Source: Balanoglossus misakiensis (lineage: Eukaryota; Animalia; Hemichordata). From it: 64,000 bases of DNA. Location: NCBI GenBank assembly GCA_040954595.2, contig JBECUI020000032.1, positions 124,001-188,000 on the forward strand, in the 5' to 3' direction. The position numbers and the translations under genes were made by a program. Below are positions 26,087 through 48,927 of the stretch, piece by piece; position 1 is the first letter of the stretch, and every line of letters begins with the position of its first letter. Below the pieces are notes generated by a model. That model did no database searches. It was not told the DNA's origin and saw only the letters and a list, made by a program, of their open reading frames with translations.

Positions 26087-26095
26087 GAAGAACCT

Positions 26096-26985
26096 CTATT
26101 GTGTCAAGTCGGAGGCTGAACTTTGTCGTCCGATGGTAGAACGGATAGTAACAATCATTATTACCCCCAGAACCACAAGAGTAACACCCAAAGTAGCGGC
26201 TTTGCCGTAGTCCAAGGAACTAAGCCGCTTGTACTGAAGTATCCCAAGGACTGACGTGGTGTTAGCAGGACCTCCGTTGGTAAGAAGAAAAGTCGCCTCG
26301 AAATGACGCAAACCAAAGGCCATTGCCAAGGTCATGGCAGTGATCAGAATATCTTTAATCATGGGCAGGGTAATGGCAAATTCCTGCTGCCAGATCGTAG
26401 CCCCATCAATTTCGGCTGCCTCGTAGAGACTTTTGGGGATAACCATGACAGAGGCAAGAACAATGATCATGAAATAACCAATATAGAAAATTTGCTGGAC
26501 AAGAATAGCCGGTAGAGCGGTATTGATTTCTCCAAGCCAGCTACGGGTCAGATGCTCCAAACCCAATTTGTCAAGAATTGGTTAATAGCACCGAATTCAG
26601 CATTATACAGAGCGGCCCACATCATGGCAATGGCGACCTGGCTAATAACATTGGGAAGGAAATAGACGGTCCGTAAGAAACGCCAGCCCTTGGGTTGGCG
26701 AGCAAGGATCAGAGCCACTGTAGTGGCCATGCCTATCTGAAGAATACCGTGGGCAAAGAGCCAAACAATGTTGTTGCGTACAGATAGCAGAAAGGTTCTA
26801 TTTCTGAAATTTTCAGTAAAGTTTTTTAGTCCTACAAACTTGGCATCGACAATACCATTCCATTCCAAAGTACTTGTGACAAAAAGGAAAATCAAAGGAT
26901 AGAGGAAATACAAGACATACAAAACAAGAACAGGTGTAAGAAACAAAACTATCCACCCGCCACGTTTTCTGTTTTTGACAATCAC
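26096..26985 (-). pseudogene. Carbohydrate ABC permease (MalF-like), frameshifted as assembled
   Basis: FVGLKNF, LYEAAEIDGA, TNGGPANTT; split near 26560. Confidence 0.75.
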
Positions 26986-27078
26986 AGCCCTATCTTCCTC
27001 CCTCTGAAATAATGTCCCAGCTTTAAAGGCGGCCTCTCCCAAGACCGCCTGCCCTATTCTACTAGTTACTGAAATTTG

Positions 27079-28348: not shown

Positions 28349-28486
28349 AACCTTACTCCTTTTGATTCTTATTATAATAACAGGACCTCAATCTCCTTTA
28401 AATAAATGCATTGCTTTCTTAACGACAACATCCATTACCTTAGTCACTATTTTATGCCCCAATTCTATGCCTAATAATAAAACAGC

Positions 28487-29245
28487 TTATGTTGTTATTT
28501 CTTTTGATTCCCCCTTTAGGAAATCAGTGTTTTTATCTCCTACCCAGTATCTTTCTCCAGCAATGCACCAGATAAAACACAGCGGACTGGTATCACTGAA
28601 AACAGGATGATAATTTAAAAAGGGAATAGTCACATGGTCACCAACGGAAACAGAGGTGACAAAGGTTTGGTTTGCATCGTTTTCATAAACGGTCATTGCT
28701 CCACTACCCTGAATAAAACTGTAGACTTCCTCCTGGTCCGTATGGTTGTGAGGAGGCCAGGCCCGGGTAGATTTTTCATAAAAGGTATATCCCGCTATAA
28801 ACTTATTGGCATCTTCAGAGACATCGAACATTTTGTACACTACCTTTTTCTTCAGGTAACGAATCCTACTTTCAGTTTTCTTTGCCTCCTCAAAACGAGA
28901 ATGAAATACCGGATAGATCTTATCTCCCACAGCCCTATAGACATAAAGCTTCCCTTCCGATTCTCCACTGTGACTCACACTAAACCCTGTCCCTACAGGC
29001 ACATACAACACGTCGTAATAGGCCAAATCATATTTTTCTCCGGCTACACGACAACTGACAGGACCGCCTAAATTAAACAGAAGAACCTCTTCGCCTTGAA
29101 AAGCAAATGAGGGACTATCAGCCTCCCGAATAAGGAGTTCTGCTGCACTTAGGTAATCCAGTCCGCTGTTTCGCTTGTTGAATATTTCCCGAAATTCACA
29201 ACAGCTGTTTCTAGAGTTGAATTTCTTTCCTGGTTTAACCATCAT
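28487..29245 (-). CDS. KduI/IolB-like cupin sugar isomerase
   Basis: YDVLYVP, WPPHNH, QEEVY, YHPV, FIWCIAG. Confidence 0.72.
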   Translation of the reverse strand: MMVKPGKKFNSRNSCCEFREIFNKRNSGLDYLSAAELLIREADSPSFAFQGEEVLLFNLGGPVSCRVAGEKYDLAYYDVLYVPVGTGFSVSHSGESEGKLYVYRAVGDKIYPVFHSRFEEAKKTESRIRYLKKKVVYKMFDVSEDANKFIAGYTFYEKSTRAWPPHNHTDQEEVYSFIQGSGAMTVYENDANQTFVTSVSVGDHVTIPFLNYHPVFSDTSPLCFIWCIAGERYWVGDKNTDFLKGESKEITT

Positions 29246-29577
29246 TTCATCCTTATAGACAATGAGGCTTGCTTATTATTTATTTTCTATAAGTAATTAT
29301 ACAGAACACCAATAAAAGTGCAACAACTTTTTAAAAAAATGTTCATCATAAAATTCTGAAAATCTTTGTGGCTTGAGGGTTCTAAGGCAGCAAAACTGTT
29401 ATTTGACCAAGTGGAGAATTTTGGGGGCTTAAAGCTGAGATTTAGGAACTTGGAAGAAAGAAAAACACCGGCAAAGCCCGCCAGGAAGTCCAGAAAAGAA
29501 GAAACTCCTGTTTTTGGATGCTACGATGCTTTAAGAAATAATACCACTCCTCCGTTTTTGCAAGAGGAATGGAAGGG

Positions 29578-32046
29578 TTAGAGAATGGGATGGTTGGGCT
29601 GACCCGGGACCTCTGTGCTTGTACCGGATTGGAGTATATGGGGGTGGTAGGCAGGATCGGCATTGACAAGGCTGGTGATGAGCCAGTCGTTGCTGTCCCA
29701 GCCCAAAGTGGCAGTGTACCAGCTTGGGGTTTTCAGTTGAGATAGCGTAACGGGGCTACCTTCAGTATTTGGACTGGAGTGGGGACTACCATCAAGGTTA
29801 GTAATATTCTGGTTCTCATAACGGTAGTGATTAATAAGGCCGCTACCGTTATTCTCTCCAAATAGACCGCCTATGTTCTCATCATCACCTGAGACATTCC
29901 CGGTAGCATAACAGCCACTGATCGTACCGTTGCTCGTGCTTCCTGCCAAACCACCTGTGCTACTGGAACCCGAGATGTTTCCTGTGGCATAGCTGCTCCT
30001 TATGGTGCCTTCATTGTTGTATCCGACTAGACCGCCTGTTCGGTCGAGTCCTGAAACATCTCCGAGACTATAACTGTTGGTCACAAAACCTTTATCGATT
30101 CTTCCAACCAGACCTCCTGTTCTGTAGATTCCCAAAACAGTTGCGGTACTGAAACTACCTGTTAAGGTGCCCTTGTCATTCCATCCGATTATACCCCCTA
30201 CCCGCCCCTGCCCCGAGACGGTTCCAGTGGTATAGCTATTAATTACCATGCCTTGGTAATTATGTCCGACTAAGCCTCCCGTGTACCAAAGACCCACAAC
30301 TTCAGATTCCAAGAGTCTAAGTTTTTTGATTTCTCCACCATCTCCTAGAGTGCCAAACAAGCCGACCGCATTGGTATTGGAGGCTACGATGTTCATGCCG
30401 CTAATGCTGTGGTCATTGCCGTCAAAGTGGCCGTTATAACCACCGTTTTTGTACTCATTATACTCACCGTACATTCCGATGGTAAGGGGATCCCAGTTTC
30501 CGTTTGCAGCGTTCTGATCGTTATCGTAAGGGTCATCCTGTATTCCGTCGTTGTTGGCATCGGCGAAGTTAAGGTCCTTTTCTAGTATGTAATCCCAACC
30601 AGGAGGATAATTCTCCATATCTACTCCGATTTTGGCCAGCTCGCTTAAACGGTGAATGTGCTGTGTGCCATTGGGGGTAGGGATAAGGGGAGTGGAGTAG
30701 GTGTACACGGAATTTCCACCAACCAGGATGAGGCGTAGATAGTAAGTGGTACGATCAGTAAGTCCCGTTATTTCTTGATATATAAAACTGCCTGCCCCTA
30801 GGAAGCTGGATTCATTGGTAATGGTGTTAAATCCAACATCCGTGGATAGCTGCATCTTGGCTGTTACTCCGTTGGGAGCCCCAACTCTGGCTCCTATTGT
30901 TGTTGACCGGGGTATGGCATCAAGAATGCCCAGACTAAAAGGCTGATGAGGATTGCCGTCAATTTCCATCCAATTGTTTGTTTCTCCCAGAGAGTTTTCT
31001 CCCAGGACCCGGAGGTAATAGGAAGTGCCGCCAACCAGGTTGCTAAGGTTTATGTCTTGGGGACTCTCTGTGATCGTGATGGGATCTGAGGATATTCCCC
31101 GATCTGAGAAATCTTCTTGGGTGTGGGCCGATACGGTAATACTGACGCCAGGTAGGGCCGTGACTGTAACCGTGATGGTTTCTATTTTACTTTCGACCTT
31201 TGTTACAGTGACTTCAGGGTTGGCCCGGGGAATGTAGGGAGGATTATGGGGGGGTGATATCCAGTTACTGACGTCCCCCTGCTGGCTCATGCCCCGGACT
31301 CGAAGATAATAAGAAGTTCCATTGTTCAGACCGGTAAGGCTCAAACCAAGGGGAGCTTGGGGGGTCGACTCAAAATCAGCTAGTATTCCTTCATCGGAAA
31401 AATCTTGTTCCTTATGAGCTACGATAAGGTATGTCACATTAGCTAGGTTTTTGAGAGCAAGGGTGAGGCTCTTGTATCCTATTCTCACATCTTCTATGAC
31501 TTGGGGATCAAGATATGGGGTTTGATTCTCAAAACCATTCCAGGGAGTAAGGTCATAACCTGTCCCTCCAATGGAATAACTGAGGGAAATTTGCTCCTGA
31601 GAGCTGGAAAAGGTTTCAGCAAAGCTGGAAGCAAGGGCGGGGGGCTGGGGTGCTAAGATGATCACACTGGATAAAGCCGTATTCGTAAAGGCTAGATGAC
31701 CTATAAAGGCCACTCCAGTTCCCATCTCTACCTCTGTAAGAGATTCAGTATGATTGAATGCCTCATTCTCTATGATGCTCACGCTGTCAGGGATGCTTAC
31801 CTTGGTCAGGCTAGATCCTTTAAAGGCGGCCTGGGCGATTTTCGTGACCGGTTTATCCTTAATACGAGAGGGAATTTCCAGGATACTGCTAGCCTGGCCC
31901 TGTTCCGAGAGACCGGTTATGGTTATGTTTTCTCCTACTTCAAGGTAGTTAACATCTTCATATTGGCCAGATGGTATCGACGAAACGGCACATCCAGCCA
32001 AAAAAAGAATTAAGAAAGCCAGAAAGATTGTAGAATTAAACTTCAT
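29578..32046 (-). CDS. Surface lipoprotein: BspA-type LRR, Fn3-like domains and six GLUG-type repeats (divergent paralog of the array)
   Basis: Lipobox LAGC; IPDSVSIIENEAF; LTGLNNGTSYYLRV; GGLVG repeats; intact 822-aa ORF. Confidence 0.88.
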   Translation of the reverse strand: MKFNSTIFLAFLILFLAGCAVSSIPSGQYEDVNYLEVGENITITGLSEQGQASSILEIPSRIKDKPVTKIAQAAFKGSSLTKVSIPDSVSIIENEAFNHTESLTEVEMGTGVAFIGHLAFTNTALSSVIILAPQPPALASSFAETFSSSQEQISLSYSIGGTGYDLTPWNGFENQTPYLDPQVIEDVRIGYKSLTLALKNLANVTYLIVAHKEQDFSDEGILADFESTPQAPLGLSLTGLNNGTSYYLRVRGMSQQGDVSNWISPPHNPPYIPRANPEVTVTKVESKIETITVTVTALPGVSITVSAHTQEDFSDRGISSDPITITESPQDINLSNLVGGTSYYLRVLGENSLGETNNWMEIDGNPHQPFSLGILDAIPRSTTIGARVGAPNGVTAKMQLSTDVGFNTITNESSFLGAGSFIYQEITGLTDRTTYYLRLILVGGNSVYTYSTPLIPTPNGTQHIHRLSELAKIGVDMENYPPGWDYILEKDLNFADANNDGIQDDPYDNDQNAANGNWDPLTIGMYGEYNEYKNGGYNGHFDGNDHSISGMNIVASNTNAVGLFGTLGDGGEIKKLRLLESEVVGLWYTGGLVGHNYQGMVINSYTTGTVSGQGRVGGIIGWNDKGTLTGSFSTATVLGIYRTGGLVGRIDKGFVTNSYSLGDVSGLDRTGGLVGYNNEGTIRSSYATGNISGSSSTGGLAGSTSNGTISGCYATGNVSGDDENIGGLFGENNGSGLINHYRYENQNITNLDGSPHSSPNTEGSPVTLSQLKTPSWYTATLGWDSNDWLITSLVNADPAYHPHILQSGTSTEVPGQPNHPIL

Positions 32047-32380
32047 ACTATGTGTTTGTCTGTTACTCCTTCTTATTATTATCGCATCTTTGGAATAATA
32101 ACAGATTTATTTTTATCAAGTTTTTATTTATCGGCGCCTGATTTTCCTGCGGTGGAGGGAAATTATTTTGACTAGCATAGGTGGGAACCTCCAAGCAGTC
32201 TGGACCTGCACCAGGGAGAAAATGGACAATGAAGTCATTTTATTGGCATCCCGGCAGGTAAATTCCACCAAGATTAGCCTCAAATCGGCATTACAGCTAA
32301 AGGAAATTTCAAGAGTTTTCCTGTAGGGGTAATGGGGATAAGAAATGGGGCTTGGCCCGAAATCTCTGTGACCGTTCAGG

Positions 32381-32500
32381 TTAGGGGTAACGAGAGGGGT
32401 AGGCGGGAGAGCTAACTGACTGATCGGAGTTGTTCCACTCAATGGTTCCCGTGTAGCAGCCTGGGATTTGGAATTCGGCTAGGGTGACAATGCTGCCTGA
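32381..32500 (-). pseudogene. Remnant C-terminus of a GLUG lipoprotein paralog
   Basis: Translates as GSIVTLAEFQIPGCYTGTIEWN...PAY, compared with GSPVTLSQLKTPSWYTATLGWD...PAY in the intact paralog. Confidence 0.5.
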
Positions 32501-32793
32501 TAAGTGGGGTATCATGGAAAGTGAAGCTACACATAGCTGTCGTTGCCCCTTATGAAAGCTTCCAACCGACCAAAAAACCTGTGTTGTTATTGACAGGGAT
32601 ACCCACCTGATCAGTCCAGAATCCCTATTGTTCCAGCTATGGTGTTTTTTGAAGTATTTTTCTTTTTGAGATGGCTCATGGGAAAACCTTTAAGTTCTTT
32701 AGGCGGGGGGAATACGGACTCAAGGCCTGTGGATTTGGCTTGGAGTGCTCAAGCAGACTTGGGGAATTCAGGGAGCGTGACCCTAAGGAGAAT

Positions 32794-32870
32794 CCCCTGC
32801 GTCAGGGATTGGAGGGGCGCCGGAGGCGGTCCGATAGGACCGTAGCCCCGCAAAGCCCGCCCGGACGCCC
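32794..32870 (+). repeat. GC-rich palindromic REP/MITE-like element, copy 1
   Basis: CCCCTGCGTCAGGGATTGGAGGGGCGCCG...AAAGCCCGCCCGGACGCCC, near-identical to 48850-48927. Confidence 0.85.
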
Positions 32871-33200: not shown

Positions 33201-33776
33201 TTAGGGAAGGGAGCTGCTGAGCTGATCGGGAAAGTCTGGGACCTGAGGGGCGTAGGGGATTTCCCTCTACCCGATGTCGATGAGACAAGAGTTTATGGGC
33301 CAAGCAACACAATAACCCACAAAAAACTTCCTTAATGCTGTGGTTCTTACCATCAAAGCTCCCAGCATATCCGCCGCTTTGGTAGGTTCCAGCTTCGTCA
33401 GGAGTTCCACGAACCAGGGGGGGGGTAAGTTCTCATTATTGCTAAGGTCGTCGCTATCGTAGGGGGCATCCATAAACCTGTTGTTGTCGGCGTCAGCAAA
33501 GTTGAGATCCAACCTTCACTCATAGTTCCAGCTAGGACTAGAGTTTTAAAAGGCTTCCCTGGCTATGGCCACAACCGATTTGCCCTGAATGTCAGAGGGA
33601 ATTGTCAGTAAGGTGATCCCTTGGCTTGCCAGGCCTGTTATGGTGATTCCCCCGCCTTCGTTCTGTTAGGTGATTGTTCCGAATGTATGGGTAACGGTGA
33701 GATTGCTGCAGGAAGTCATCATATAAAGGGCCAAGAGCACAATGCCGACTGCTATGAGAAAAGCTTTCCTACGCAT
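33201..33776 (-). pseudogene. Internally deleted LRR/GLUG lipoprotein pseudogene
   Basis: AAGGAG plus ATG 33776: MRRKAFLIAVGIVLLALYMMTSC...ITITGL...TIPSDIQGKSVVAIAREAF*NSSPSWNYE*RLDLNFADAD; in-frame stops and large deletions. Confidence 0.75.
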
Positions 33777-33986: not shown

Positions 33987-36384
33987 CTAGGGGGTTGGCA
34001 GGGGGGTGTCGGGCTGGCCGGGAAAGTTGTTGATGTGGGGGTGGTAGGCGGGACTGCCGTCCACCCGGCCTTCAATGACCCAATCGTTGGCGGACCAGCC
34101 TAGCCTGCCAGTGTTGGTCCCGGTGTACCAGCTTGGGGTTTTTAGTTGATCCAGGCTGACGGTGCTGCCTAGGGTGCTGGGTGTAGGGTGGGCATTGCCG
34201 TCAGGGGCCGTGATACTCTGATTCGCATAGCGGTAGCTGTTCGTTATGGTTCCTGGGGCACGAATAGTTCCAACCAAACCACCCACCTGGGTGGTGTCTC
34301 TCTGACCCAAGACATTCCCTGTAGCATAGCTATTCGTTAGGGTACCTCCATCGAGGAATCCTATCAAACCACCTACCTGAGAACCCTGCCCCGAGACATC
34401 TCCAGTAGCATAGCTGCCTGTTATGTGAGCAGTGAGCTGTCCAACCAAACCACCCACGTACTTATCCTGCCCCGAGACATCTCCAGTGGCATAGCTGCCT
34501 GTTATGCTACTAGCTATACTATTGTAGCTTCCTACCAAACCACCCACGCCGCTCCCTTGCCCCGAGACATCTCCGGTGGAATAGCTATCCCTTATGCTAC
34601 CGCCGCTGGACCCAGCCAAGCCTCCCACGTGACTCCCCTGCCCCGAGACATCTCCGGTGGAATAGCTATCCCTTATGCTACCGCCGCTGGACCCAGCCAA
34701 GCCTCCCACGTTATTTCCCTGTCCCGAGACATCTCCGGTGGAATAGCTATCCCTTATGCTGCCGCTGCTGGACCCAGTCAAGCCACCCACGCTGCTGCTA
34801 CCCGTGACAGAAGCCGCAGCATAGCTACCGCTTATGGTAGCCCAGGAGCGCCCGACCAAAGCACCCACATCGCGGTACCCCAAAACAGAGCCCCCAATCA
34901 GTCCCAGATCCTTTATCTCACTTCCACCAGTAACCGTGGCCCCGAAAAAACCAACTCCATCGGCTTCAGGAGTTGTGACGGTCATTCCCTCGATACTGTG
35001 GTTTTTACCATCAAAGTTCCCAGCATATCCACCGCTTAGGTAGTTGCCATCGTCGTCATAAGTCCAGGGCTAAGAGGGGTCCAGTTTCCGTTGTCGGCAT
35101 CATCGTCGCTGTCGAAGGGGTCATCCCTGATCCCATCGTTGTCGGCGTCAGCGAAGTTGAGGTCCATGCTTAGCTCGTAGTTCCAGTTATCGGGGTAGTT
35201 TTCCGTATCCACTCCGATTTTGGCCAGTTCACTCAGGCGGTGGATGTACTGCTTGCCATCGGCGGTGGGGATGAGGGGGGTGGTGTAACGGTATTCAGCG
35301 CTGCCGTCGCTGAGCTGGGCATGCAGGTAGTAGGCGGTCTCGGTTACTGACCCCGCTGAGTTCCACTGTCTGAGGGCCGGGGCTGCCTGTAAAGGAAACC
35401 TTCTTGACCATGATGTTTAAAGCCTGGTCGGTGAAGGCTTGGAGTTCTGCTTCTAGTCCTAGGGGAACGCCAACTTCACCATGATTTTTCCAGAACGGGG
35501 ACGGCATCGGTAATGACGATGCCATGGGGAGAGTAAGGATTAGGAAGCGTTATCCAATCCGTGGAGGCCTCCGGGAGACCTGATTCCCTTTGGCCCGCAG
35601 GCGGTAGGAGGTACCGTCGGTCAGGCCAGTCAAGCTTATCTCCTGGGATGTTGTTGCCGTCGGTTCGGAACAGCTGTTGCGGTAGCTTCACTGCTAAAGT
35701 CAGCTTCGGTGTGAGCTTCAACGGTAATGCCTAACGCCGGGTAGGGGCTTGAGGGTGATGATGAGGCTTTGGTAAGCCTGTCTTATGTTTTCAATGATAG
35801 CGGGGTCCAAGGCCCGTTCCGGACCGCCGAAGCCGCTCCAGAGGCCTTCAGTGTAGCCTGTTGTTTCTCCGATGGGGTAAAGGAGGGTGATCCCGGTCAA
35901 GGGGGCAGGAAAGGCCTCGGCGGGGCTGCCTATAAAGCTGGGGGCCTTGGGGGCCAGGATGGTCAGCTTGTTGAGAGCCGTTCCGGCGAAGGCCAGATTG
36001 CCGATGGAGGTGATACCGTTACCTATCTGCACTTCGCTCAAGGAGGCAGCTGAGTTGAAGGCCTCGTCTCCTATAGTTGTGACGCTGTTGGGAATATTTA
36101 TGCTGGTGAGGGTAGAGTTTTTAAAGGCTGCCTCGGCTATGGCCGTAACGGGCTTGTTGTGAATAAAAGAGGGTATGCTGAGGTCGGTGATGTCTCGTCT
36201 TGCCAGACCAGTTATAGTGATTTCCTGCCTTCGTCCTGGTAGGTAAGTGCGTCGAAACTAAGGGGGGCAGTAGGGTTGCTGCAGGAAGTTATCAGGTAGA
36301 ACACAAAAAGGAAAAAACCAACTTTGGCGGCTAGGGTTCCTCTATGTTGTCTTACGCGGGGAGAGGGTGAGTATCTAAATTCAT
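33987..36384 (-). pseudogene. Array copy A: LRR/Fn3-like/GLUG lipoprotein with 8 GLUG modules, frameshifted as assembled
   Basis: ATG 36384 after AAGGAG, lipobox ITSC; fragments 35718-36041, 35476-35721, 35295-35525, 33987-34985 are homologous to 45846-48746. Confidence 0.8.
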
Positions 36385-36416
36385 ATGTTGGATCTCCTTA
36401 CAAACTTGATTGGCCT

Positions 36417-36445
36417 ATCATATAGTAGGACTACGTTCTTGTCAA
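36417..36445 (-). promoter_or_regulatory. Sigma70-like promoter of copy A
   Basis: TTGACA-N17-TATGAT, with the -10 box about 32 bp upstream of the ATG. Confidence 0.7.
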
Positions 36446-36629
36446 AGCTTTGCCATAGCCTAAAAGCTTTGCCATAGGTAAAAGACTTTTGATTGAGCAG
36501 TGATATTGAATAATGACACTACGCTTCTAAAGTTTATTGCGTTTTAGAGGGAAAGCCAAGTTTTTTGGAATTATTCTCTGTTTTTTGGGGAAGACTTCGG
36601 GGTTGGGGCGGCGATGGAGAGGTCCAGGG

Positions 36630-37145
36630 GGGCTGGTTTGGGGAGATGAGCCTTCCAAGGCCCGCACGGACTGCGGGCCTTGGAGGGCGGGATTGCTGGT
36701 AGAGGCATCATCCCGCATTTGCGGGGGTGATGGCTAGGGGGGTGGTAGGGGGGGTGTCGGGCTGGCCGGGGAAGTTGGTGATGTGGGGCTGGTTGGGGGA
36801 GATTAGCCTTCCAAGGCCCGCACGGACTGCGGGGCTTGGAGGGCGGGATTGCTGGTAGAGGCATCATCCCCGCATTTGCGGGGGTGATGGCTAGGGGGTT
36901 GGCAGGGGGGTGTCGGGCTGGCCGGGGAAGTTGGTGATGTGGGGTGGTAGGCGGGGGTCGGGCTGGCCGAGGAAGTTGGTGATGTGGGGCTGGTTGGGGG
37001 AGATTAGCCTTCCAAGGCCCGCACGGACTGCGGGGATTGGAGGGCGGGATTGCTGGTAGAGGCATCATCCCCGCATTTGCGGGGGTGATGGCTAGGGGGT
37101 TGGTAGGGGGGTGTCGGGCTGGCCGGGGAAGTTGGTGATGTGGGG
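36630..37145. repeat. Triplicated ~155-bp unit (gene 3' end plus double hairpin)
   Basis: Three copies of GCCTTCCAAGGCCCGCACGGACTGCGGG...GGCATCATCCC(C)GCATTTGCGGGGGTGATGGCTAGGGG...GGAAGTTGGTGATGTGGGG, plus a ~40-bp partial copy. Confidence 0.85.
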
Positions 37146-39681
37146 GTGGTAGGCGGGACTGCCGTCCACCCGGCCTTCAATGACCCAATCGTTGACGGAC
37201 CAGCCTAGCTTGCCAATTTCGGTTCCGGTGTACCAGCTTGGGGTTTTTAGTTGATCCAGGCTGACGGTGCTGCCTAGGGTGCTGGGGTAGGGTGGCATTG
37301 CCGTCAGGGGCCGTGATACTCTGATTCGCATAGCGGTAGCTGTTCGTTATGGTGCCAGAAAAGGATGCTCCGACCAAACCACCCACCTGGGTGGAGGCAC
37401 TCTTCCCCACGACATTCCCTGTAGCATAGCTATTCGTTAGGGTACCTCCATCGAGGAATCCTATCAAACCACCCACACTAAAGGACCCCGAGACATCTCC
37501 AGTAGCATAGCTGCCTGTTATGCTAGCAGAGCTGTGCCCGGCCAAACCACCCACAGCATCGTTCCCCGAGACATCTCCAGTAGCATAGCTGCCTGTTATG
37601 CTAGCAGAGCTGTGCCCGGCCAAGCCGCCCACGTTGCTGCTACCCGTGACAGAACCCGTGGCATAGCTGCCTGTTATGCTAGCAGTGCTGAGCCCAGCCA
37701 AGCCGCCGACATACCCCTGACCCGAGACAACCCCAGTGGCATAGCTCTCTGTTATGACCCCACTATTTTCTCCAACCAAACCACCCACGTGACGCCCCTG
37801 CCCCGAGACATCTCCAGTGGCATAGCTAGCCCTTATGCTACCACCGCTGTACCCAGCCAAGCCTCCCACGTAACTCCCCTGCCCCGAGACATCTCCGGTG
37901 GAATAGCTATCCCTTATGCTGCCGCTGCTGGACCCAGCCAAGCCACCCACGTTGCTGCTACCCGTGACAGAACCCGTGGTATAGCTGCCTGTTATGGTTC
38001 CACCCGATACTCCAGCCAAACCACCAACGCTTCTGCTACCCGTGACAGAACCCGTAGCATAGCTGCCTATAATCTCTCCCTCGTTATACCCAACCAAACT
38101 ACCTACGTTAGAATTACCCGAGAAAGAGCCACCCAGCAGTGCCAGATCCTTAATTTGACCTCCAGCAAGCATAAAATTAAAAAACCGACTCTATTAGCTA
38201 AAGGTGTCGTGACGGTCATTCCCTCGATACTGTGGTTTTTACCATCAAAGTTCCCAGCATATCCACCGCTTAGGTAGTTTCCATCGTCGTCATAAGTTCC
38301 AGGGCTAAGAGGGGTCCAGTTTCCGTTGTCGGCATCATCGTCGCTGTCGAAGGGGTCATCCCTGATCCCGTCGTTGTCAGCGTCAGCGAAGTTGAGGTCC
38401 ATGCTTAGCTCGTAGTTCCAGTTATCGGGGTAGTTTTCCGTATCCACTCCGATTTTGGCCAGTTCGCTTAGGCGGTGGATGTACTGCTTGCCGTCGGCGG
38501 TGGGGATGAGGGGAGTGAATAGCGGTATTCAGCGCTGCCGTCGCTGAGCTGGGCACGCAGGTAGTAGAGCCTTTCATTGCTGACCCCGCTGAGTTCCACT
38601 GTCTGAGGGCCGGGGCTGCCTGTAAAGGAAACCTTCTTGACCATGATGCTTAAAGCCTGGTCGGTGAAGGCCTGGAGTTCTGCTTCTAGTCCTAGGGGAG
38701 CGTCAACTTCAACCATGATTTTTCCAGAACGGGGAACGGCATCGGTAATGGCGATGCCATAGGGAGAGTAAGGATTAGGAAGCGTTATCCAATCCGTGAA
38801 GGCCTCCGGGGAGACCTGGCTCCCTTTGGCCCGCAGGTGGTAGGAGGTACCGTCGGTCAGGCCAGTCAGGCTTATCTCCTGGGATGTTGTTGCCGTCGGT
38901 TCGGAAACTGCTGTTGCGGTGGTAGAGCCAGCTTCGGTGAGAGCTTCTACGGTAATGCTAACGCCGGGTAGGGGCTTGAGGGTGATAATGAGGCTTTGGT
39001 AAGCCTGTCTTATGTTTTCAATGACAGAGGGGTCCAAGGCCCGTTCTGGACCGCCAAAGCCGCTCCAGGGGGCTTCAGTGTAGCCTGTTGTTTCTCCGAT
39101 GGGGTAAAGGAGGGTGATCCCGGTCAAGGGGGCGGGAAAGGCCTCGGGAGGACTGCCTATAAAGCTGGGGGCCCTGGGGGCCAGGACGGTGAGTTTATTA
39201 AGGGCCGTTCCGGCGAAGGCCAGATTGCCGATGGAGGTGATACCGTTACCTATCTGCACTTCGCTCAAGGAGGCAGCTGAGTTGAAGGCCTCGTCTCCTA
39301 TAGTCCGTGACGCTGTTGGGAATATTTATGCTGGTGAGGGTAGAGTTTTTAAAGGCTGCCTCGGCTATGGGCCCGTAACGGGCTTGTTTATAAATGAAAG
39401 AGGTATGCTGAGGTCGGTGCTCTCTCGTCTTGCCAGACCAGTTATAGTGATTCCCTGCCTTCGTCCTGGTAGGTAAGTGCGTCGAAACTAGGGGGGCGGT
39501 GAGGTTGCTGCAGGAAGTTATCAGGTAGAAAACGAAAGGGAAAGACCAACTTTAGTGGCTAGGGTTTTTCTATGCTGTCTTACGCGGGGAAGTGAGTGAG
39601 TGAGTGAGTGAGTGAGTGAGTGAGTGAGTGAGTGAGTGAGTGAGTGAGTGAGTGAGTGAGTGAGTTGGTAAATAAATTCAT
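37092..39681 (-). pseudogene. Array copy B: LRR/Fn3-like/GLUG lipoprotein with 10 modules and (ACTC)18, out of frame as assembled
   Basis: ATG 39681 after AAGGAG; fragments 38468-39268, 38103-38447, 37177-38172, 37092-37331. Confidence 0.8.
39594..39665 (+). repeat. (GAGT)18 tract, read as (ACTC)18 on the coding strand of copy B
   Basis: 72 nt of perfect repeat beginning 16 nt after the first base of the ATG. Confidence 0.95.
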
Positions 39682-39713
39682 ATGCTGGATCTCCTTACAA
39701 ATTTGATTGGTCT

Positions 39714-39742
39714 ACCCTATCGTAGTTATTCTTTTTTGTCAA
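39714..39742 (-). promoter_or_regulatory. Sigma70-like promoter of copy B
   Basis: TTGACA-N17-TAGGGT. Confidence 0.55.
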
Positions 39743-40013
39743 GTCTTTGCCATAGGTAAAAGACTTTTTGATTGAGCAGTGATCTTGAATAAGGACACTA
39801 CGCTTCTAAAGCTTATGACGTTTTAGAGGGAATGCCAAGTTTTTTGGAATTATTTTCTGTTTTTGGGAAGACTTCAGGGTTGGGGTGGCGAGGGAGGGGT
39901 CCAGAGGGGGCTGGTTTGGGGAGATGAGCCTTACAAAGGCCCGCACGGACTGCGGGGCTTGGAGGGCAGGATTGCTGATAGAGGCATCATCCCCGCATTT
40001 GCGGGGGTGATGG

Positions 40014-42640
40014 CTAGGGGGTTGGCAGGGGGGTGTCGGGCTGGCCGGGGAAGTTGGTGATGTGGGGGTGGTAGGGGGGGCTGCCGTTCACCCGGCCTTC
40101 AATAATCCACTTGTCGGCGGCCCAGCCTAAGTTGCCGGTGTCGGTGTACCAGCTTGGGGTTTTTAGTTGATCCAGGCTGACGGTGCTGCCAGAGGTGTTG
40201 GGTGTAGCCTGGGCATTGCCGTCAGGGTCTGTGAAACTCTGATTCACATAGCGGTAGCTGTTGGTTATGGTGCCTGTATCAATTAGTCCTATCAAACCAC
40301 CCAGGTCGGCCCCTTGCCCCGAGACATTCCCAGTGGCATAGCTGTTTGTTATGCTACCAAAGTTGTGATGACCGACCAAACCACCCACGATGTTCCCTTG
40401 CCCCGAGAGATCCCCAGTGGCATAGCTGTTCTCTATGCTGCCTGTGTTGTATCCCACCAAGCCGCCCAACGCATTGCTGACCCCGAAACAGTACCGGTGG
40501 CATAGCTGTTTGTTATGGAACTAGCATTGCCTCCAAACCAAACCACCCACTTGATCGTCCCCCGAGACATCTCCAGTGGCATAGCTGTCGACATCTCCAG
40601 TGGCATAGCTGTCTGTTATGGTAGCACGGGCTCTGTCCAACCAAACCACCCACGCTGTCCTCCTGACCCGAGACATCTCCAGTGGCATAGCTGCCTGTTA
40701 TGGCAAAACCAATGTTGTTTCCAACCAAACCACCCACACCACCGAGCCCCGAAACAGTACCAGTGGCATAGCTGTCTGTTATGGGACCAATTTTGAGTCC
40801 GACCAAAACCACCTACACTGCTACTCTGCCCTGATACATTCCCGGTGGCATAGCTGCTCGTTATGCTGCCCATTTGCCCGCTGGATCCAACCAAACCACC
40901 CACGTAGTCCCCCTGACCCGAGACATCTCCAGTGGTATAGCTAGCCCTTATACTGCCGTTGCTGTACCCAGCCAAGCCTCCCACATACTCCTGCCCCGTG
41001 ACAGAAGCCGTAGCATAGCTGCCTATAATCTCTCCCTCGTTATCCCCAACCAAACTACCTACGAAAGAATTACCCGAGAAAGAGCCACCCAGCAGTTCCA
41101 GATCCTTAATTTGACCTCCAGCAACCGTGGTCCCCAAAAAACCGACTCTATTAGCTAAAGGTGTCGTGACGGTCATTCCCTCGATACTGTGGTTTTTACC
41201 ATCAAAACTCCCAGCATATCCACCGCTTAGGTAGTTGCCATCGTCGTCATAAGTTCCAGGGCTAAGAGGGGTCCAGTTTCCGTTGTCGGCATTGTTGTCG
41301 CTGTCAAAGGGGTCATTCTTAACCCCGTCGTTGTCGGCGTCGGCGAAGTGGAGGTTGCTTTTTAATTCGTAGTTCCAGTTATCGGGGTAGTTTTCACTAT
41401 CCACGCCGATTTTGGCCAGTTCGCTTAGGCGGTGGATGTACTGCTTGCCGTCGGCGGTGGGGATGAGGGGAGTGGAATAGCGGTATTCAGCGCTGCCGTC
41501 GCTGAGCAGGGCACGCAGGTAGTAGGGCCTTTCATTGCTGACCCCGCTGAGTTCCACTGTCTGAGGGCCGGGGCTGCCTGTAAAGGAAACCTTCTTGACC
41601 ATGATGCTTAAAGCCTGGTCGGTGAAGGCCTGGAGTTCTGCTTCTAGTCCTAGGGGAACGCCAACTTCAACCGTGATTTTTCCAGAACGGGGAACGGCAT
41701 CGGTAATGGCGATGCCATGGGGAGAGTAAGGATTAGGAAGCGTTATCCAATCCGTGGAGGCCTCCGGGGAGACCTGATTCCTTTGGCCCGCAGGCGGTAG
41801 GAGGTACCGTCGGTCAGGCCAGTCAGGCTTATCTCCTGGGATGTTGTTGCCGTCGGTTCGGAAACTGCTGTTGCGGTGGTAGATCCAGCTTCGGTGCGAG
41901 CTTCTACGGTAATGCTAACGCCGGGTAGGGGCTTGAGGGTGATGATGAGGCTTTGGTAAGCCTGTCTTATGTTTTCAATGACAGAGGGGTCCAAGGCCCG
42001 TTCCGGACCGCCGAAGCCGCTCCAGGGGGCTTCAGTGTAGCCTGTTGTTTCTCCGATGGGGTAAAGGAGGGTGATCCCGGTCAAGGAGGCGGGAAAGGCC
42101 TCGGCGGGGCTGCCTGTAAAGCTGGGGGCCCTGGGGGCCAGGACGGTGAGTTTATTAAGGGCCGTTCCGGCGAAGGCCAGATTGCCGATGGAGGTGTACC
42201 GTTACCTATCTGCACTTCGCTCAAGGAGGCAGCTGAGTTGAAGGCCTCGTCTCCTATAGTCGTGACGCTGTTGGGAATATTTATGCTGGTGAGAATGGAG
42301 TTTTTAAAGGCTGCCTCGGCTATGGCCGTAACGGGCTTGTTATAAATGAAAGAGGGTATGCTGAGGTCGGTGCTGTCTCGTCTTGCCAGACCAGTTATAG
42401 TGATTTCCCTGCCTTCGTCCTGGTAGGTAAGTGCGTCGAAACTAGGGGGGGCGGTGAGGTTGCTGCAGGAAGTTATCAGGTAGAAAACGAAAAGGGAAAG
42501 ACCAACTTTAGTGGCTAGGGTTTTTCTATGCTGTCTTACGCGGGGAAGTGGGAAGTGAGTGAGTGAGTGAGTGAGTGAGTGAGTGAGTGAGTGAGTGAGT
42601 GAGTGAGTGAGTGAGTGAGTGAGTTGGTAAATAAATTCAT
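40014..42640 (-). pseudogene. Array copy C: LRR/Fn3-like/GLUG lipoprotein with about 10 modules and (ACTC)17, out of frame as assembled
   Basis: ATG 42640 after AAGGAG; fragments 41743-42084, 40616-41602, 40513-40812, 40014-40469. Confidence 0.8.
42557..42624 (+). repeat. (GAGT)17 tract in copy C with an adjacent 7-bp GGGAAGT duplication
   Basis: 68 nt of perfect repeat, counted directly. Confidence 0.95.
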
Positions 42641-42672
42641 ATGCTGGATCTCCTTACAAATTTGATTGGTTT

Positions 42673-42701
42673 ATCCTATCGTAGTTATTCTTTTTTGTCA
42701 A
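42673..42701 (-). promoter_or_regulatory. Sigma70-like promoter of copy C
   Basis: TTGACA-N17-TAGGAT. Confidence 0.6.
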
Positions 42702-42973
42702 GTCTTTGCCATAGGTAAAAGACTTTTTGATTGAGCAGTGATATTGAATAATGACACTACGCTTCTAAAGCTTATTTGCTTTTTAGAGGGAAAACCAAAT
42801 TTTTTGGAATTATTTTCTGTTTTGGGGAAGACTTCGGGGTTGGGGTGGCGATGGAGAGGTCCAGGGGGGGGCAGGTTGGGGGAGATGAGCCTTACAAGGC
42901 CCGCACGGACTGCGGGGCTTGGAGGGCGGGATTGCTGGTAGAGGCATCATCCCCGCATTTGCGGGGGTGATGG

Positions 42974-45514
42974 CTAGGGGGTTGGTAGGGGGGTGTCGGG
43001 CTGGCCGGGGAAGTTGGTGATGTGGGGGTGGTAGGGGGGGCTGCCGTTCACCCGGCCTTCAATAATCCACTTGTCGGCGGCCCAGCCTAAGTTGCCGGTG
43101 TCGGTGTACCAGCTTGGGGTTTTTAGTTGATCCAGGCTGACGGTGCTGCCAGAGGTGTTGGGTGTAGCCTGGGCATTGCCGTCAGGGTCTGTGAAACTCT
43201 GATTCACATAGCGGTAGCTGTTGGTTATGGTGCCTGTATCAATTAGTCCTATCAAACCACCCAGGTCGGCCCCTTGCCCCGAGACATTCCCAGTGGCATA
43301 GCTGTTTGTTATGCTACCGAAGTTGTGATTACCGACCAAACCACCCACGATGTTCCCTTGCCCCGAGAGATCCCCAGTGGCATAGCTGTTCTCTATGCTG
43401 CCTGAGTTGACTCCCGCCAAGCCGCCCAACTCGTCGCTGACCCCCGAAACAGTACCGGTGGCATAGCTAGCCCTTATGCTGCTGGTGGTGTCTCCAACCA
43501 AACCACCCACTTGTGTCCCCTGACCCGAGACATCCCCAGTGGCATAGCTACCGCTTATGGTAGCCCAGGAGCGCCCCGACCAAACCACCCACACTACCGT
43601 CCCCCGAGACATCTCCAGTGGCATAGCTGTCTGTTATGGGAGCAAGGGTACGTCCGACCAAACCACCTACAAGGTCTCTCTGCCCTGAGACATTCCCGGT
43701 GGCATAGCTGCTCGTTATGCTGCCCCTTCTCCAGCTGAGTCCAACCAAACCACCCACGAAGACCCCTACATTGTTGCCCCCATGACCTGATACATCTCCA
43801 GTGGCATAGCTAGCCCTTATACTGCCGTTGCTGTACCCAGCCAAGCCTCCCACATACTCCTGCCCCGTGGCAGAAGCCGTAGAATAGCTGCCTATAATCT
43901 CTCCCTTGTTATCCCCAACCAAACTACCTACGTTAGAATTACCCGAGAAAGAGCCACCCAGCAGTGCCAGATCCTTAATTTGACCTCCAGCAACCATCAA
44001 ATTAAAAAAAACCGACTCTATTAGCTAAAGGTGTCGTGACGGTCATTCCCTCGATACTGTGGTTTTTACCATCAAAACTCCCACCATACCCACCGCTTAG
44101 GTAGTTTCCATCGTCGTCATAAATTCCAGGCTAAGAGGGGTCCAGTTTCCGTTGTCGGCATCATCGTCGCTGTCGTAATGGTCGTTCATTACCCCATCGT
44201 TGTCAGCGTCGGCGAAGTTGAGTCCCATGCTTAGCTCGTAGTTCCAGTTATCGGGGTAGTTTTCACTATCCACTCCGATTTTGGCCAGTTCACTCAGGCG
44301 GTGGATGTACTGCTTGCCGTCGGCGGTGGGGATGAGGGGAGTGGAATAGCGGTATTCAGCGCTGCCGTCGCTGAGCTGGGCACGCAGGTAGTAGGCGGTC
44401 TCGTTACTGACCCCGCTGAGTTCCACTGTCTGAGGGGCGAGGCTGCCTGTAAAGGAAACCTGCTTGACCATGATGTTTAAAGCCTGGTCGGTGAAGGCCT
44501 GGAGTTCTGCTTCTAGTCCTAGGGAATGCCAACTTCAACCATGATTTTTCCAGAACGGGGAACGGCATCGGTAATGACGATGCCATGGGGAGAGTAAGGA
44601 TTAGGAAGCGTTATCCAATCCGTGGAGGCCTCCGGGGAGACCTGATTCCCTTTGGCCCGCAGGCGGTAGGAGGTACCGTCGGTCAGGCCAGTCAGGCTTA
44701 TCTCCTGGGATGTTGTTGCCGTCGGTTCGGAAACTGCTGTTGCGGTGGTAGATCCAGCTTCGGTGTGAGCTTCTACGGTAATGCTAACGCCGGGTAGGGG
44801 CTTGAGGTGATGATGAGGCTTTGGTAAGCCTGTCTTATATTTTCAATGACAGAGGGGTCCAAGGCCCGTTCTGGACCGCCGAAGCCGCTCCAGGGGGCTT
44901 CAGTGTAGCCTGTTGTTTCTCCCGATGGGGTAAAGGAGGGTGATCCCGGTCAAGGGGGCAGGAAAGGCCTCGGCGGGGCTGCCTATAAAGCTGGGGGCCC
45001 TTGGGGCCAGGATGCTTAGCTTGTTGAGGGCCGTTCCGGCGAAGGCCAGATTGCCGATGGAGGTGATACCGTTACCTATCTGCACTTCGCTCAAGGAGGC
45101 AGCTGAGTTGAAGGCCTCGTCTCCTATAGTCGTGACGCTGTTGGGAATATTTATGCTGGTGAGAATGGAGTTTTTAAAGGCTGCCTCGGCTATGGCCGTA
45201 ACGGGCTTGTTATAAATGAAAGAGGGTATGCTGAGGTCGGTGCTGTCTTGTCTTGCCAGACCAGTTATAGTGATTTCCCTGCCTTCGTCCTGGTAGGTAA
45301 GTGCGTCGAAACTAGGGGGGCGGTGAGGTTGCTGCAGGAAGTTATCAGGTAGAAAACGAAAAGGGAAAGACCAACTTTAGTGGCTAGGGTTTTTCTATGT
45401 TGTCTTACGCGGGGAAGTGAGTGAGTGAGTGAGTGAGTGAGTGAGTGAGTGAGTGAGTGAGTGAGTGAGTGAGTGAGTGAGTGAGTGAGTGAGTGAGTTG
45501 ATAGATAAATTCAT
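42974..45514 (-). pseudogene. Array copy D: LRR/Fn3-like/GLUG lipoprotein with about 9 modules and (ACTC)20, out of frame as assembled
   Basis: ATG 45514 after AAGGAG; fragments 44900-45094, 44097-44471, 43548-44000, 42974-43624. Confidence 0.8.
45419..45498 (+). repeat. (GAGT)20 tract in copy D
   Basis: 80 nt of perfect repeat, counted directly. Confidence 0.95.
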
Positions 45515-45546
45515 ATGCTGGATCTCCTTACAAATTTGATTGGTCT

Positions 45547-45574
45547 ATCCTATCGTAGGTATTCTTTTTGTCAA
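45547..45574 (-). promoter_or_regulatory. Sigma70-like promoter of copy D
   Basis: TTGACA-N16-TAGGAT. Confidence 0.55.
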
Positions 45575-45760
45575 GTCTTTTCTATAGGTAAAAGACTTTT
45601 TGATTGAGCAGTGATATTGAATAATGACACTACGCTTCTAAAGCTTATTGCGTTTTAGAGGGAATGCCAAGTTTTTTGGAATTATTTTCTGTTTTTGGGA
45701 AAGACTTCGGGGTTGGGGTGGCGATGGAGAGGTCCAGGGGGGGCAGGTTGGGGGAGATGA

Positions 45761-45844
45761 GCCTTCCAAGGCCCGCACGGACTGCGGGGCTTGGAGGGCG
45801 GGATTGCTGGTAGAGGCATCATTCCCGCATTTGCGGGGGTGATG
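45761..45844 (-). terminator. Double GC-rich hairpin after copy E, also present after B, C and D
   Basis: GCCTTCCAAGGCCCGCA-CGGAC-TGCGGGGCTTGGAGGGC and CATCATTCCCGCA-TT-TGCGGGGGTGATG directly after the stop; no U-tract, so function is uncertain. Confidence 0.45.
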
Positions 45845-45845
45845 G

Positions 45846-48746
45846 CTAGGGGGTTGGGAGGGGGGTGTTGGGTTGGTTGGGGAAGTTGGTGATGTGGGGG
45901 TGGTAGGGGGGGGTACCGTTCACCCGGCCTTCAATAATCCACTTGTCGGCGGCCCAGCCTAAGTTGCCGGTGTCGGTGTACCAGCTTGGGGTTTTTAGTT
46001 GATCCAGGCTGACGGTGCTGCCAGAGGTGTTGGGGTTGGCTTTGGCATTGCCGTCAGGGTCTGTGATACTCTGATTCGCATAGCGGTAGCTGTTGGTTAT
46101 GGTGCCTGTATTAATTAGTCCTATCAAACCACCCAGGTCGGCCCCTTGCCCCGAGACATTCCCAGTGGCATAGCTGTTTGTTATGCTACCAAAGTTGTGA
46201 TTACCGACCAAACCACCCACGATGTTCCCTTGCCCCGAGACATTCCCAGTGGCATAGCTGTTTGTTATGCTACCGCCGTTGTTCCCAGCCAAGCCTCCCA
46301 CATACCACCCCCACCCCGAGACATCCCCTGTGGCATAGCTGCCTGTTATGCTACCGCCGCCGTTGTCCCCAGCCAAGCCTCCCACGAGACCCCCCTGAGT
46401 CGAGGTGACAACCCCAGTGGAATAGCTATCATTTATGCTGCCGCTGCTGGACCCAGCCAAGCCTCCCACGAGACCCCCCTGAGTCGAGGTGACAACCCCA
46501 GTGGAATAGCTCTCTGTTATGACCCCACTATTGTATCCAACCAAACCACCCACTTTATTCCACTGACCTGAGACATCTCCGGTGGAATAGCTATCACTTA
46601 TGCTGCCGCTGCTGGACCCAGCCAAGCCACCAACCTCATCCCACTGACCCGTGACAGAACCCGTAGCATAGCTGCCTGTTATGGTTCCACCCGATACTCC
46701 AGCCAAGCCACCAACGCTGCTGTTACCCCTAACATCTCCGGTGGAATAGCTATCACTTATGCTGCCGCTGCTGGACCCAGCCAAGCCACCAACCTCATCC
46801 CCCTGACCCGTGACAGAACCCGTAGCATAGCTGCCTGTTATGGTTCCACCCGATACTCCAGCCAAGCCACCAACGCTGCTGTTACCCCTGACATCTCCGG
46901 TGGAATGGCTATCACTTATGCTGCCGCTGCTGGACCCAGCCAAGCCACCAACCTCATCCCCCTGACCCGTGACAGAACCCGTAGCATAGCTGCCTGTTAT
47001 GGTTCCACCCGATACTCCAGCCAAGCCACCAACGCTGCTGCTACCCCTGACATCTCCGGTGGAATGGCTATCACTTATGCTGCCGCTGCTGGACCCAGCC
47101 AAGCCACCAACCTCATCCCCCTGACCCGTGACATCTCCGGTGGAATAGCTATCACTTATGCTGCCGCTGCTGGACCCAGCCAAGCCACCAACCTCATCCC
47201 CCTGACCCGTGACAGAACCCGTAGCATAGCTGCCTATGATCTCTCCCTCGTTATACCCAATCAAGCTACCTACGTTAGAATTCCCCGAGAAAGAGCCACC
47301 CAGCAGTTCCAGATCCTTAATTTGACCTCCAGCAAGCATAAAATTAAAAAAACCGACTCTATTAGCTGAAGCTGTCGTGATGGTCAGTCCCTCGATACTG
47401 TGGTTTTTACCATCAAAGTTCCCAGCATATCCACCGCTTAGGTAGTTTCCATCGTCGTCATAAGTTCCAGGGCTAAGAGGGGTCCAGTTTCCGTTGTCGG
47501 CATCATCGTCGCTGTCAAAGGGGTCATCCCTGATCCCGTCGTTGTTCGCGTCAGCGAAGTTGAGGTCCATGCTTAGCTCGTAGTTCCAGTTATCGGGGTA
47601 GTTTTCACTATCCACTCCGATTTTGGCCAGTTCACTCAGGCGGTGGATGTACTGCTTGCCATTGGCGGTGGGAATAAGGGGAGTGGAATAGCGGTATTCA
47701 GCGCTGCCGTCGCTGAGTAGGGCCCGCAGGTAGTAGGTGATTTCATTGCTGAGTCCGTCTATTTCCACCGTTGGAGAGTCGGGGTTAATTGTAAAGAAGA
47801 CTTCTTTGACCATCATGCTAAAATCCTTGTCGCTGAATGCCTGGAGTTTTGCTTCCATTTCTTCTGAGGCTCTTACTTCAGCAATAATTTTCCCTGTACG
47901 GGGGGTAGCATCGGCAATAAAGATACCGTGGGGTTTGTAGGGAGTGAGAAGTGGCACCCAGGCGCTGGGGGTGCCTGGAAAATTTTGGTATCCTCTGACC
48001 CGCAGATGGTAGAAGGTCCCTTCGCTAAGACCAGTCAGGGTTATCTCCTGGGTTGTCGTTGCCCTTGGGTTTGATTTTGCCGTTGCAACGGCATCGCCGG
48101 TGAAGTCGGCTTCTGTGTGGGCTTCTACGGTCAAGGTAGCGCCGTATAGGGGCTTGAGGCTGATGATGAGCTTTTGAAAACCCGTAGTTATTTTTTCAAT
48201 GACACTGGATCCCAGGAGAGGGATATGGCGACCGAAGTACCTCCAGGGGGCTCTGTCGTAACCTGTGCTCCCCAAAGGGTAAACCAGGGAGATTTCTCTT
48301 AGGGGAATGGGGAGGATTCCCTCAAGGGGAAAGCCTATGATCCTGGGGGCCTCTGGGGCCAGGATGGTGAGTGTGTTTAGGGATGTACCGGTAAAGGCTA
48401 GACTGCCTATCGATTTAATGCCGTTTCCTATCTGTACTTCGCTTAGGGAGGCAGATAAGTAAAAGGCTTCGTTTCCTATGGTAGTTACGCTGTCGGGAAT
48501 GCTTACCCTGCTAAGGGCAGTACCTCTAAAGGCTGCCCTGGCTATGGCGGTAACAGGCTTGTTGTGAATGAACGAAGGGATTGTTATGACGGTGCTGTTT
48601 TGGTTTACCAGACCAGTTATGGTGATTGTGCTACCTTCGTCCCGATGGGTGAACTCTCCGAGGTTGGGAGGGGCAGAGGGGTCGGCACAGGAAATTAGAA
48701 GGTAACAGAAAAAGTGTAAAATTCCGAAAACTTTGGGACACTTCAT
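45846..48746 (-). CDS. Array copy E: intact 966-aa surface lipoprotein with BspA-type LRR, Fn3-like domains and 15 GLUG-type modules
   Basis: Lipobox LISC; IPDSVTTIGNEAF; LTGLSEGTFYHLRV; FDGKNHSIEGL; (S/A)TG.V.G..VGGL(A/V)G repeats; no ACTC tract. Confidence 0.9.
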   Translation of the reverse strand: MKCPKVFGILHFFCYLLISCADPSAPPNLGEFTHRDEGSTITITGLVNQNSTVITIPSFIHNKPVTAIARAAFRGTALSRVSIPDSVTTIGNEAFYLSASLSEVQIGNGIKSIGSLAFTGTSLNTLTILAPEAPRIIGFPLEGILPIPLREISLVYPLGSTGYDRAPWRYFGRHIPLLGSSVIEKITTGFQKLIISLKPLYGATLTVEAHTEADFTGDAVATAKSNPRATTTQEITLTGLSEGTFYHLRVRGYQNFPGTPSAWVPLLTPYKPHGIFIADATPRTGKIIAEVRASEEMEAKLQAFSDKDFSMMVKEVFFTINPDSPTVEIDGLSNEITYYLRALLSDGSAEYRYSTPLIPTANGKQYIHRLSELAKIGVDSENYPDNWNYELSMDLNFADANNDGIRDDPFDSDDDADNGNWTPLSPGTYDDDGNYLSGGYAGNFDGKNHSIEGLTITTASANRVGFFNFMLAGGQIKDLELLGGSFSGNSNVGSLIGYNEGEIIGSYATGSVTGQGDEVGGLAGSSSGSISDSYSTGDVTGQGDEVGGLAGSSSGSISDSHSTGDVRGSSSVGGLAGVSGGTITGSYATGSVTGQGDEVGGLAGSSSGSISDSHSTGDVRGNSSVGGLAGVSGGTITGSYATGSVTGQGDEVGGLAGSSSGSISDSYSTGDVRGNSSVGGLAGVSGGTITGSYATGSVTGQWDEVGGLAGSSSGSISDSYSTGDVSGQWNKVGGLVGYNSGVITESYSTGVVTSTQGGLVGGLAGSSSGSINDSYSTGVVTSTQGGLVGGLAGDNGGGSITGSYATGDVSGWGWYVGGLAGNNGGSITNSYATGNVSGQGNIVGGLVGNHNFGSITNSYATGNVSGQGADLGGLIGLINTGTITNSYRYANQSITDPDGNAKANPNTSGSTVSLDQLKTPSWYTDTGNLGWAADKWIIEGRVNGTPPYHPHITNFPNQPNTPLPTP

Positions 48747-48849: not shown

Positions 48850-48927
48850 CCCCTGCGTCAGGGATTGGAGGGGCGCCGAAGGCGGTCCGGCAGGACCGTT
48901 AGCCCCGGAAAGCCCGCCCGGACGCCC
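48850..48927 (+). repeat. GC-rich palindromic REP/MITE-like element, copy 2
   Basis: Direct repeat of 32794-32870 with few differences. Confidence 0.85.

Follow-up and report, generated by a model that had tools for sequence, protein, structure and literature searches.

A tandem family of predicted surface lipoprotein genes raises the question of how its members are used: whether each copy can be switched and remodelled, whether one copy is expressed and the others only donate sequence to it, or whether most of them have died. Such a family lies in the window, i.e. the 64,000-nucleotide stretch of contig JBECUI020000032.1 analyzed here as a whole, where five head-to-tail paralogs (A to E), each with LRR, Fn3-like and GLUG regions, occupy positions 33987-48746 on the minus strand. 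Their stops lie at 33987, 37092, 40014, 42974 and 45846, as an earlier note on this DNA had read them, and the period of about 2.9-3.1 kb that it gave corresponds to spacings of 2872, 2960, 2922 and 3105 bp; the SD-led ATGs of A, B, C and D are at 36384, 39681, 42640 and 45514. The near-identity noticed between the N-terminal halves of A-D amounts to 93.2-95.9% pairwise identity across a 1.4-kb 5' part, and copy E is indeed an intact, tract-free open frame. The divergent sixth paralog (F) is intact too, whereas instead of several decayed copies a single one was found, together with short duplications. The genes and their immediate surroundings are as follows.

45846..48746, minus strand: copy E, intact, 966 aa, lipobox LISC with Cys20, 14 GLUG rungs, no tract
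42974..45514, minus strand: copy D, 8 GLUG rungs, frameshifted in the assembly
40014..42640, minus strand: copy C, nine complete GLUG rungs and a partial duplication of 24 nt, frameshifted in the assembly
37092..39681, minus strand: copy B, 9 GLUG rungs, frameshifted in the assembly
33987..36384, minus strand: copy A, 7 GLUG rungs, a single ACTC unit, out of frame in the assembly
29578..32046, minus strand: copy F, 822 aa, a divergent but intact paralog that lacks a tract and has a longer Fn3-like stalk
33331..33746, minus strand: pseudogene remnant with signal peptide, part of the LRR and part of the beta-helix cap, with in-frame stops
36629..37157, no strand assigned: duplicated 3' ends and spacer pieces at the B/A junction, 156 bp x 2.1 and 201 bp x 2.1
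45816..45844, minus strand: inverted repeat just past the stop, a candidate hairpin with no U run that recurs in each spacer

A neighbouring cNMP-binding gene marks the source organism of the array as a spirochaete: its relatives among the collected genomes, 14 in number and 53-66% identical, all carry the label Spirochaetota or that of a lower taxon within it. The GLUG part of F shares no exact stretch of at least 36 nt with A-E. The B/A junction contains the last codons, the hairpin that follows the stop and a piece of the spacer in triplicate, either as a real slippage scar or as an assembly error. The array has a GC content of 54.4% against 45.8% in the rest of the window, a difference that glycine-rich coding may explain. 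A 76-bp hairpin-rich element, 93% identical in its two occurrences, is found upstream of E (48850-48925) and between the remnant and F (32794-32868); in the public sequencing run X1 the summed depth at its bin is 85.8, compared with 7.2 around it, which suggests a dispersed repeat. Further away in the window, a predicted lipoprotein with cadherin-like and FGE-sulfatase domains and no tract is encoded at 21902-23611, and 20298-20942 is a 214-aa frame that matches no Pfam family, contains a CxxC pattern and resembles by eye an insertion-sequence fragment.

Concerning the encoded proteins and the LRR/Fn3/GLUG lipoprotein architecture proposed earlier, Pfam places GLUG (PF07581, 169 bits) and LRR_5 (48.4 bits, one 64-aa stretch at residues 65-128, a short LRR of the BspA type) on E above cut-off; the fn3 profile scores 16.7 bits on E and 24.8 bits on F, both under the cut-off of 25, and the Fn3-like region of E is not confidently folded in a single-sequence model. 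LRR proteins of the BspA type adhere to host ligands. Signal peptide and lipobox were read from the sequence, and both the lipid anchor and the beta-helix fold are predictions. A single-sequence model of E reached a pLDDT of 45, while the alignment-based model of residues 349-966 (16 sequences) reached 84.5 and is a beta-helix. Closest to it are BACOVA_03286 and the N-terminal domain of the M26 IgA1 proteases (Foldseek E 2.3e-4), the best structural match being an IgA1-protease-type beta-helix (Z 23.5, rmsd 2.9, 255 aligned); across PDB entries 3n6z, 7uvk and 6xja the modelled fold is the same, with Z 21.6-23.5 and rmsd 2.9-3.2. A PDB sequence search with the GLUG part returned no matches. In the M26 proteases the beta-helix acts as a moving gate for the substrate, according to the accessible part of PMC7695701. 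Those enzymes carry HExxH and protease domains and the array proteins have neither; no HExxH motif occurs in E, in F or in the three coding-strand frames of A-D, and IgA1 protease activity is therefore ruled out. The model is likely to represent a non-catalytic binding rod on a stalk.

The first property that sets some copies apart is a tetranucleotide tract close to the start of translation. Three copies carry it, as had been noticed before, and the tracts and the promoter-like sites in front of the genes are these:

39591..39665, minus strand: tract of copy B, (ACTC)18, pure, out of frame in the assembly
42554..42624, minus strand: tract of copy C, (ACTC)17, imperfect end, out of frame in the assembly
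45416..45498, minus strand: tract of copy D, (ACTC)20, in the signal-peptide n-region, out of frame in the assembly
36417..36445, minus strand: sigma-70-like promoter site of A, 11/12
39714..39742, minus strand: promoter-like site of B, TTGACA-17-TAGGGT, under the scanner threshold and read directly from the sequence
42673..42701, minus strand: sigma-70-like promoter site of C, 10/12
45547..45574, minus strand: sigma-70-like promoter site of D, 10/12

Apart from the imperfect end in C the tracts of B-D are 100% pure, begin 16 nt after the SD-led ATG, inside the signal-peptide region, and are the only 4-nt tracts of at least four units in the 64-kb window; copy A has one ACTC unit and no tract. 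The unit length of 4 nt is not divisible by 3, so one unit gained or lost in B-D changes the frame. The tract itself is open in all three frames and encodes the same tetrapeptide in each. In the assembly the 5' ends of A-D are all out of frame, and the tract lengths were read from an error-prone stretch; run X1 contains the tract junction too (loose end at 36362). Slippage of the tract would move the reading frame and switch each of B, C and D on or off, presumably at a high rate, and E and F would be the constantly made members of the family. All four copies A-D possess an SD, an ATG and a signal peptide with lipobox. The promoter-like sites of A, C and D lie about 30 nt upstream, and since the scanner returned 8 sites in a region where chance alone predicts 10.6, weight is given only to their position and repetition.

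The tract might instead tune the amount of protein, via transcript elongation or translation from an unrecognised start, without turning it on and off. An 8-nt tract in another spirochaete genome, described below, lies upstream of a second in-frame ATG, where a leader-type effect would be possible. Against this, C and D have no in-frame ATG, GTG or TTG between tract and lipobox, and the sequence from tract to lipobox in B is the same except for one indel; lacking a start of its own in the lipobox frame, C or D must be translated through the tract. The SD, moreover, precedes the upstream ATG, and we consider such tuning very unlikely.

Frameshifts are also numerous in A-D beyond the tracts, a point that the earlier note did not mention. 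Are these sequencing errors or decay? The shared 5' part of A-D holds 20 indel events, mostly in short homopolymers, 18 of them private to one copy and 19 of 1-2 bp, and further indels occur in the GLUG part. When the indel codons are masked, no stop is found in 4x469 codons, compared with 3.4 expected (115 segregating sites; P ~0.03), and dN/dS between the 5' parts is 0.29-0.46, which indicates purifying selection. Unique DNA next to the array behaves similarly: across 8.3 kb (24500-32832) the alignment of an X1 contig with the window shows 6 substitutions but 23 gaps, the latter amounting to an indel rate of 2.8 per kb, not different (p = 0.29) from the 3.9 per kb of A-D, which counts 22 copy-events including one in-frame 9-bp insertion. 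ABC-transporter genes at 24320-28320 are split by frameshifts into Pfam half-matches, probably also through assembly errors. X1 contigs are free of the frameshift at seven of the eight one-base sites in A (among 12 of 28 indel rows listed), at both sites examined in the 5' part of C and at one site in its GLUG part; the contigs over A-D are common to several paralogs and give no copy-specific proof, and X1 is a single study that may be the window's own source. Run X2 yielded short pieces only and X3 no matching records. By contrast, the in-frame stops of the remnant are unchanged in X1, where a 1207-nt contig is identical to it over 33331-33746. Most of the frameshifts of A-D outside the tracts are thus probably sequencing errors, and caution is advisable generally: most 'pseudogene' calls in the array and its neighbourhood in this assembly probably have the same origin.

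These data bear directly on a reading in which the array is a birth-and-death family, amplified and mixed by unequal crossing-over, with A-D recently dead, the tracts a by-product and only E and F in use. All of A-D are broken in the assembly, a real remnant adjoins them, and tandem GLUG arrays with no tract are found in other genomes (G047, G174 and G015, see below). E and F are free of frameshifts whereas A-D are not, and at a uniform error rate this would have P = 0.0003 and 0.001, respectively, meaning that either the error density is patchy or some of the indels in A-D are real. The masked copies nevertheless have no stop and a dN/dS near 0.3, their indels are private and match those of the neighbouring unique DNA in kind and rate, and pure tracts of 17-20 units are confined to one gene position. 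Recent death of A-D is accordingly unlikely, and the same absence of stops, dN/dS and private 1-bp indels argue against A-D being fixed pseudogenes, a possibility that the earlier note had kept in view.

The second property is the variation of the GLUG region, which the earlier note had rightly seen to differ among copies. Rung number ranges from 7 in A through 8 in D and 9 in B and in C (the latter with its partial unit) to 14 in E. There are 48 GLUG units, of which 42 are in frame and full length, and 39 of these 42 are distinct. Parsing 41 rungs shows a near-invariant core (<0.8 bits of entropy) and two short segments with 29 and 26 variants (4.4-4.7 bits), the first of which sits in a turn of the E model. 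The rows that bear on exchange and expansion in E are the following.

45846..47750, minus strand: 3' part of E homogenised with A-D, with an identity step at about 47750
46572..47133, no strand assigned: internal expansion in E of a two-rung unit, 159 bp x 3.5, 98% identical

Before this step the identity of copy E to A-D is 64-78%; beyond it the identity to B-D is 85-98%. For the last 420 nt of E the values are 95.5% against C and D but 81-82% against either A or B. Rungs of different number have exact blocks of 36-63 nt in common (for example B1 with E3/E5/E7, C4 with A4, B6/B7 with A5). In the 5' part of A-D all three 2:2 splits occur among the 33 informative sites (16, 13 and 4), and they are clustered, with 15 runs compared with 20.6 expected (P = 0.022); in the GLUG part a single split, D with C, dominates. 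The incompatible splits, the sharp conversion boundary in E and the two hypervariable segments per rung support recombination among the copies, as past exchange, since mosaicism gives no rate. Such recombination between and within copies would have altered how many rungs the beta-helix has, in which order they stand and what sequence their loops carry, and the varied loops may form a binding surface under pressure from host or phage.

Exchange into E suggests another arrangement, in which E is the sole expressed gene and A-D are silent cassettes that donate sequence to its beta-helix. The earlier note had pointed to spirochaete systems of this kind, the surface proteins VlsE/Vmp of Borrelia and TprK of Treponema pallidum, which vary by recombination (PMC4534519, in the part available). 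That E is intact and heads the array, that beyond about 47750 it has been homogenised with A-D, and that A-D are all off in the assembly would agree with this. In vlsE and tprK, however, one expression site is fed by silent cassettes, and the silent donors of vls and pilS described in the same part of PMC4534519 have no promoter, SD, ATG or signal peptide, whereas A, C and D have promoter-like sites (that of B is the one under the scanner threshold) and all of A-D have SD, ATG and signal peptide with lipobox. Furthermore, the 5' parts of A-D are under purifying selection, and exchange among A-D extends to a part that E does not share. Membership in the vlsE/tprK class is for these reasons rejected, the comparison was the wrong one, and a donor role for A-D is quite unlikely.

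The assembly could also have made an array from one or two genes: the stretch is rich in indel errors and the duplications at the B/A junction are odd. But divergence among the copies is 4-7%, biased towards synonymous changes, and each copy has its own set of rungs, on which grounds we reject an artefact as highly improbable. Where X1 contigs cover the 5' part common to the copies they reach depths of 49-72, compared with 7.24 in the flank, and the one of depth 63 extends into the tract; this hints at more copies, not fewer, although depth here is no copy number. Four of four GLUG inserts tested from X1 had no window match within 3 mismatches and may belong to more paralogs elsewhere in the genome or to another allele of the array. 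In the incomplete X1 record set, separate cover is missing for the tract-less 5' end of A, where only the tract-type contig was seen, and for the C-specific rungs near 40458-40553 and 40746-40841, which a different array content in X1 would fit; nothing is concluded from it. Run X2, for its part, contains short variant contigs of GLUG genes over 34122-36345 that continue unlike the window, and covers the unique flank in small pieces.

Relatives were sought in the sampled Spirochaetia genomes. The region before the helix was matched in 11 of 401, and the four examined more closely (G047, G174, G015 and G271) hold multi-copy families of GLUG lipoproteins, with tandem runs in G047 and G174; an (ACTC)8 was found in none of the 401. 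The search proposed earlier for the same array in related Spirochaetia recovered tandem GLUG arrays but not the ACTC tract. In G047 (L051-L056) there are 7-8 GLUG lipoprotein genes per 17-20 kb and at least 150 GLUG matches in a 1.8-Mb genome, and in G174 (L046-L048) the GLUG-type paralogs vary the length of the signal-peptide n-region through short in-frame degenerate repeats. The stalks of the other Spirochaetia GLUG lipoproteins are Mfa-like, cadherin-like or TSP3, unlike those of the array. No comparable tract was seen in the fetched parts of G047, G174 and G015 or at the 14 loci of the cNMP-binding gene, and the 5' half of E gave LRR-only matches in one of five genomes holding those loci. 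A full-length close homolog of E was absent from the best 120 of 562 matches, the best rows covering 5-27% of the query; a second search gave domain-level matches only (34-55% identity, among the 150 matches listed), and the one locus from a metagenome scan matched in GLUG alone and lay in a low-GC contig that is unrelated.

A different tract was found in G271, which has four close GLUG paralogs scattered in the genome, two of them with an 8-nt repeat at the 5' end:

L041:5560 and L042:6201: tract-bearing Mfa-like/GLUG lipoprotein paralogs of G271, (TCCCAGAG)14 and 21

One of the two long tracts is in frame and the other is not, and a second in-frame ATG follows; in a third paralog a single TCCCAGAG unit stands after the upstream ATG. 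We regard these tracts as a candidate for an independent repeat switch.

Opa products of Neisseria are outer-membrane beta-barrels encoded at scattered loci with a CTCTT repeat, whereas the array lies head-to-tail, repeats ACTC and encodes predicted lipoproteins with LRR and a GLUG beta-helix of 7-14 rungs. The likeness lies elsewhere: each opa paralog owes its switch to a repeat within the sequence coding for the signal peptide, while recombination reassorts hypervariable segments (PMC3960869 and PMC4534519, in the parts available), and here too the repeat is in the signal-peptide region and the exchange, a past one, is among variable segments. Tetranucleotide tracts just downstream of the start, slipping at ~1e-4 per generation, are described for Haemophilus influenzae as the usual switch in the accessible part of PMC2651432, and the hgp paralogs treated there carry 4-39 CCAA units, a length range similar to that of B-D. 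The same part attributes imperfect hgp tracts to recombination between paralogs, and by analogy the imperfect end in copy C may have arisen in this way. The hgp genes encode haemoglobin receptors of another family and phylum, with a CCAA unit and no shuffling of rungs. By this analogy the array likely works as opa and hgp do while being a member of neither.

Taken together, we assign a probability of roughly two in three to the array being a contingency locus of the opa/hgp type, combining a repeat switch with recombination among paralogs. Of the two-layer locus put forward in the earlier note, the anatomy stands and the sequence tests fit, while the likeness to vlsE/tprK does not; switching is what we infer from these, and the shuffling that the sequences record is a past one. 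The two-layer design was already known from opa and hgp, and repeat switching is no novelty among spirochaetes either, because the accessible part of PMC11868660 includes T. pallidum in its list of species that have SSR repertoires. What is new is the family of proteins, the lineage in which it occurs and the tandem arrangement. A search of the open-access literature gave, among the records listed, no description of phase-variable GLUG lipoproteins, and the main texts of two papers on invertebrate-associated spirochaetes mention neither GLUG nor phase variation nor lipoproteins, in line with the earlier statement that no such system was known.

A bolder and rather doubtful idea is that uncultured Spirochaetia coupled a slippage switch to GLUG beta-helix lipoproteins more than once (ACTC here, TCCCAGAG in G271) and that rungs are reshuffled fast within populations, yielding a combinatorial receptor repertoire on a beta-solenoid, with some ten copies in each genome, only some of them made at any one time and not always the same ones. 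If the switching proposed for B-D is true, two-layer surface variation of the opa/hgp type would be found in spirochaetes other than Borrelia and Treponema, and GLUG, a repeat that is poorly understood, would gain a role as a variable binding scaffold, in which the two variable segments of each rung are the residues to test for ligand binding.
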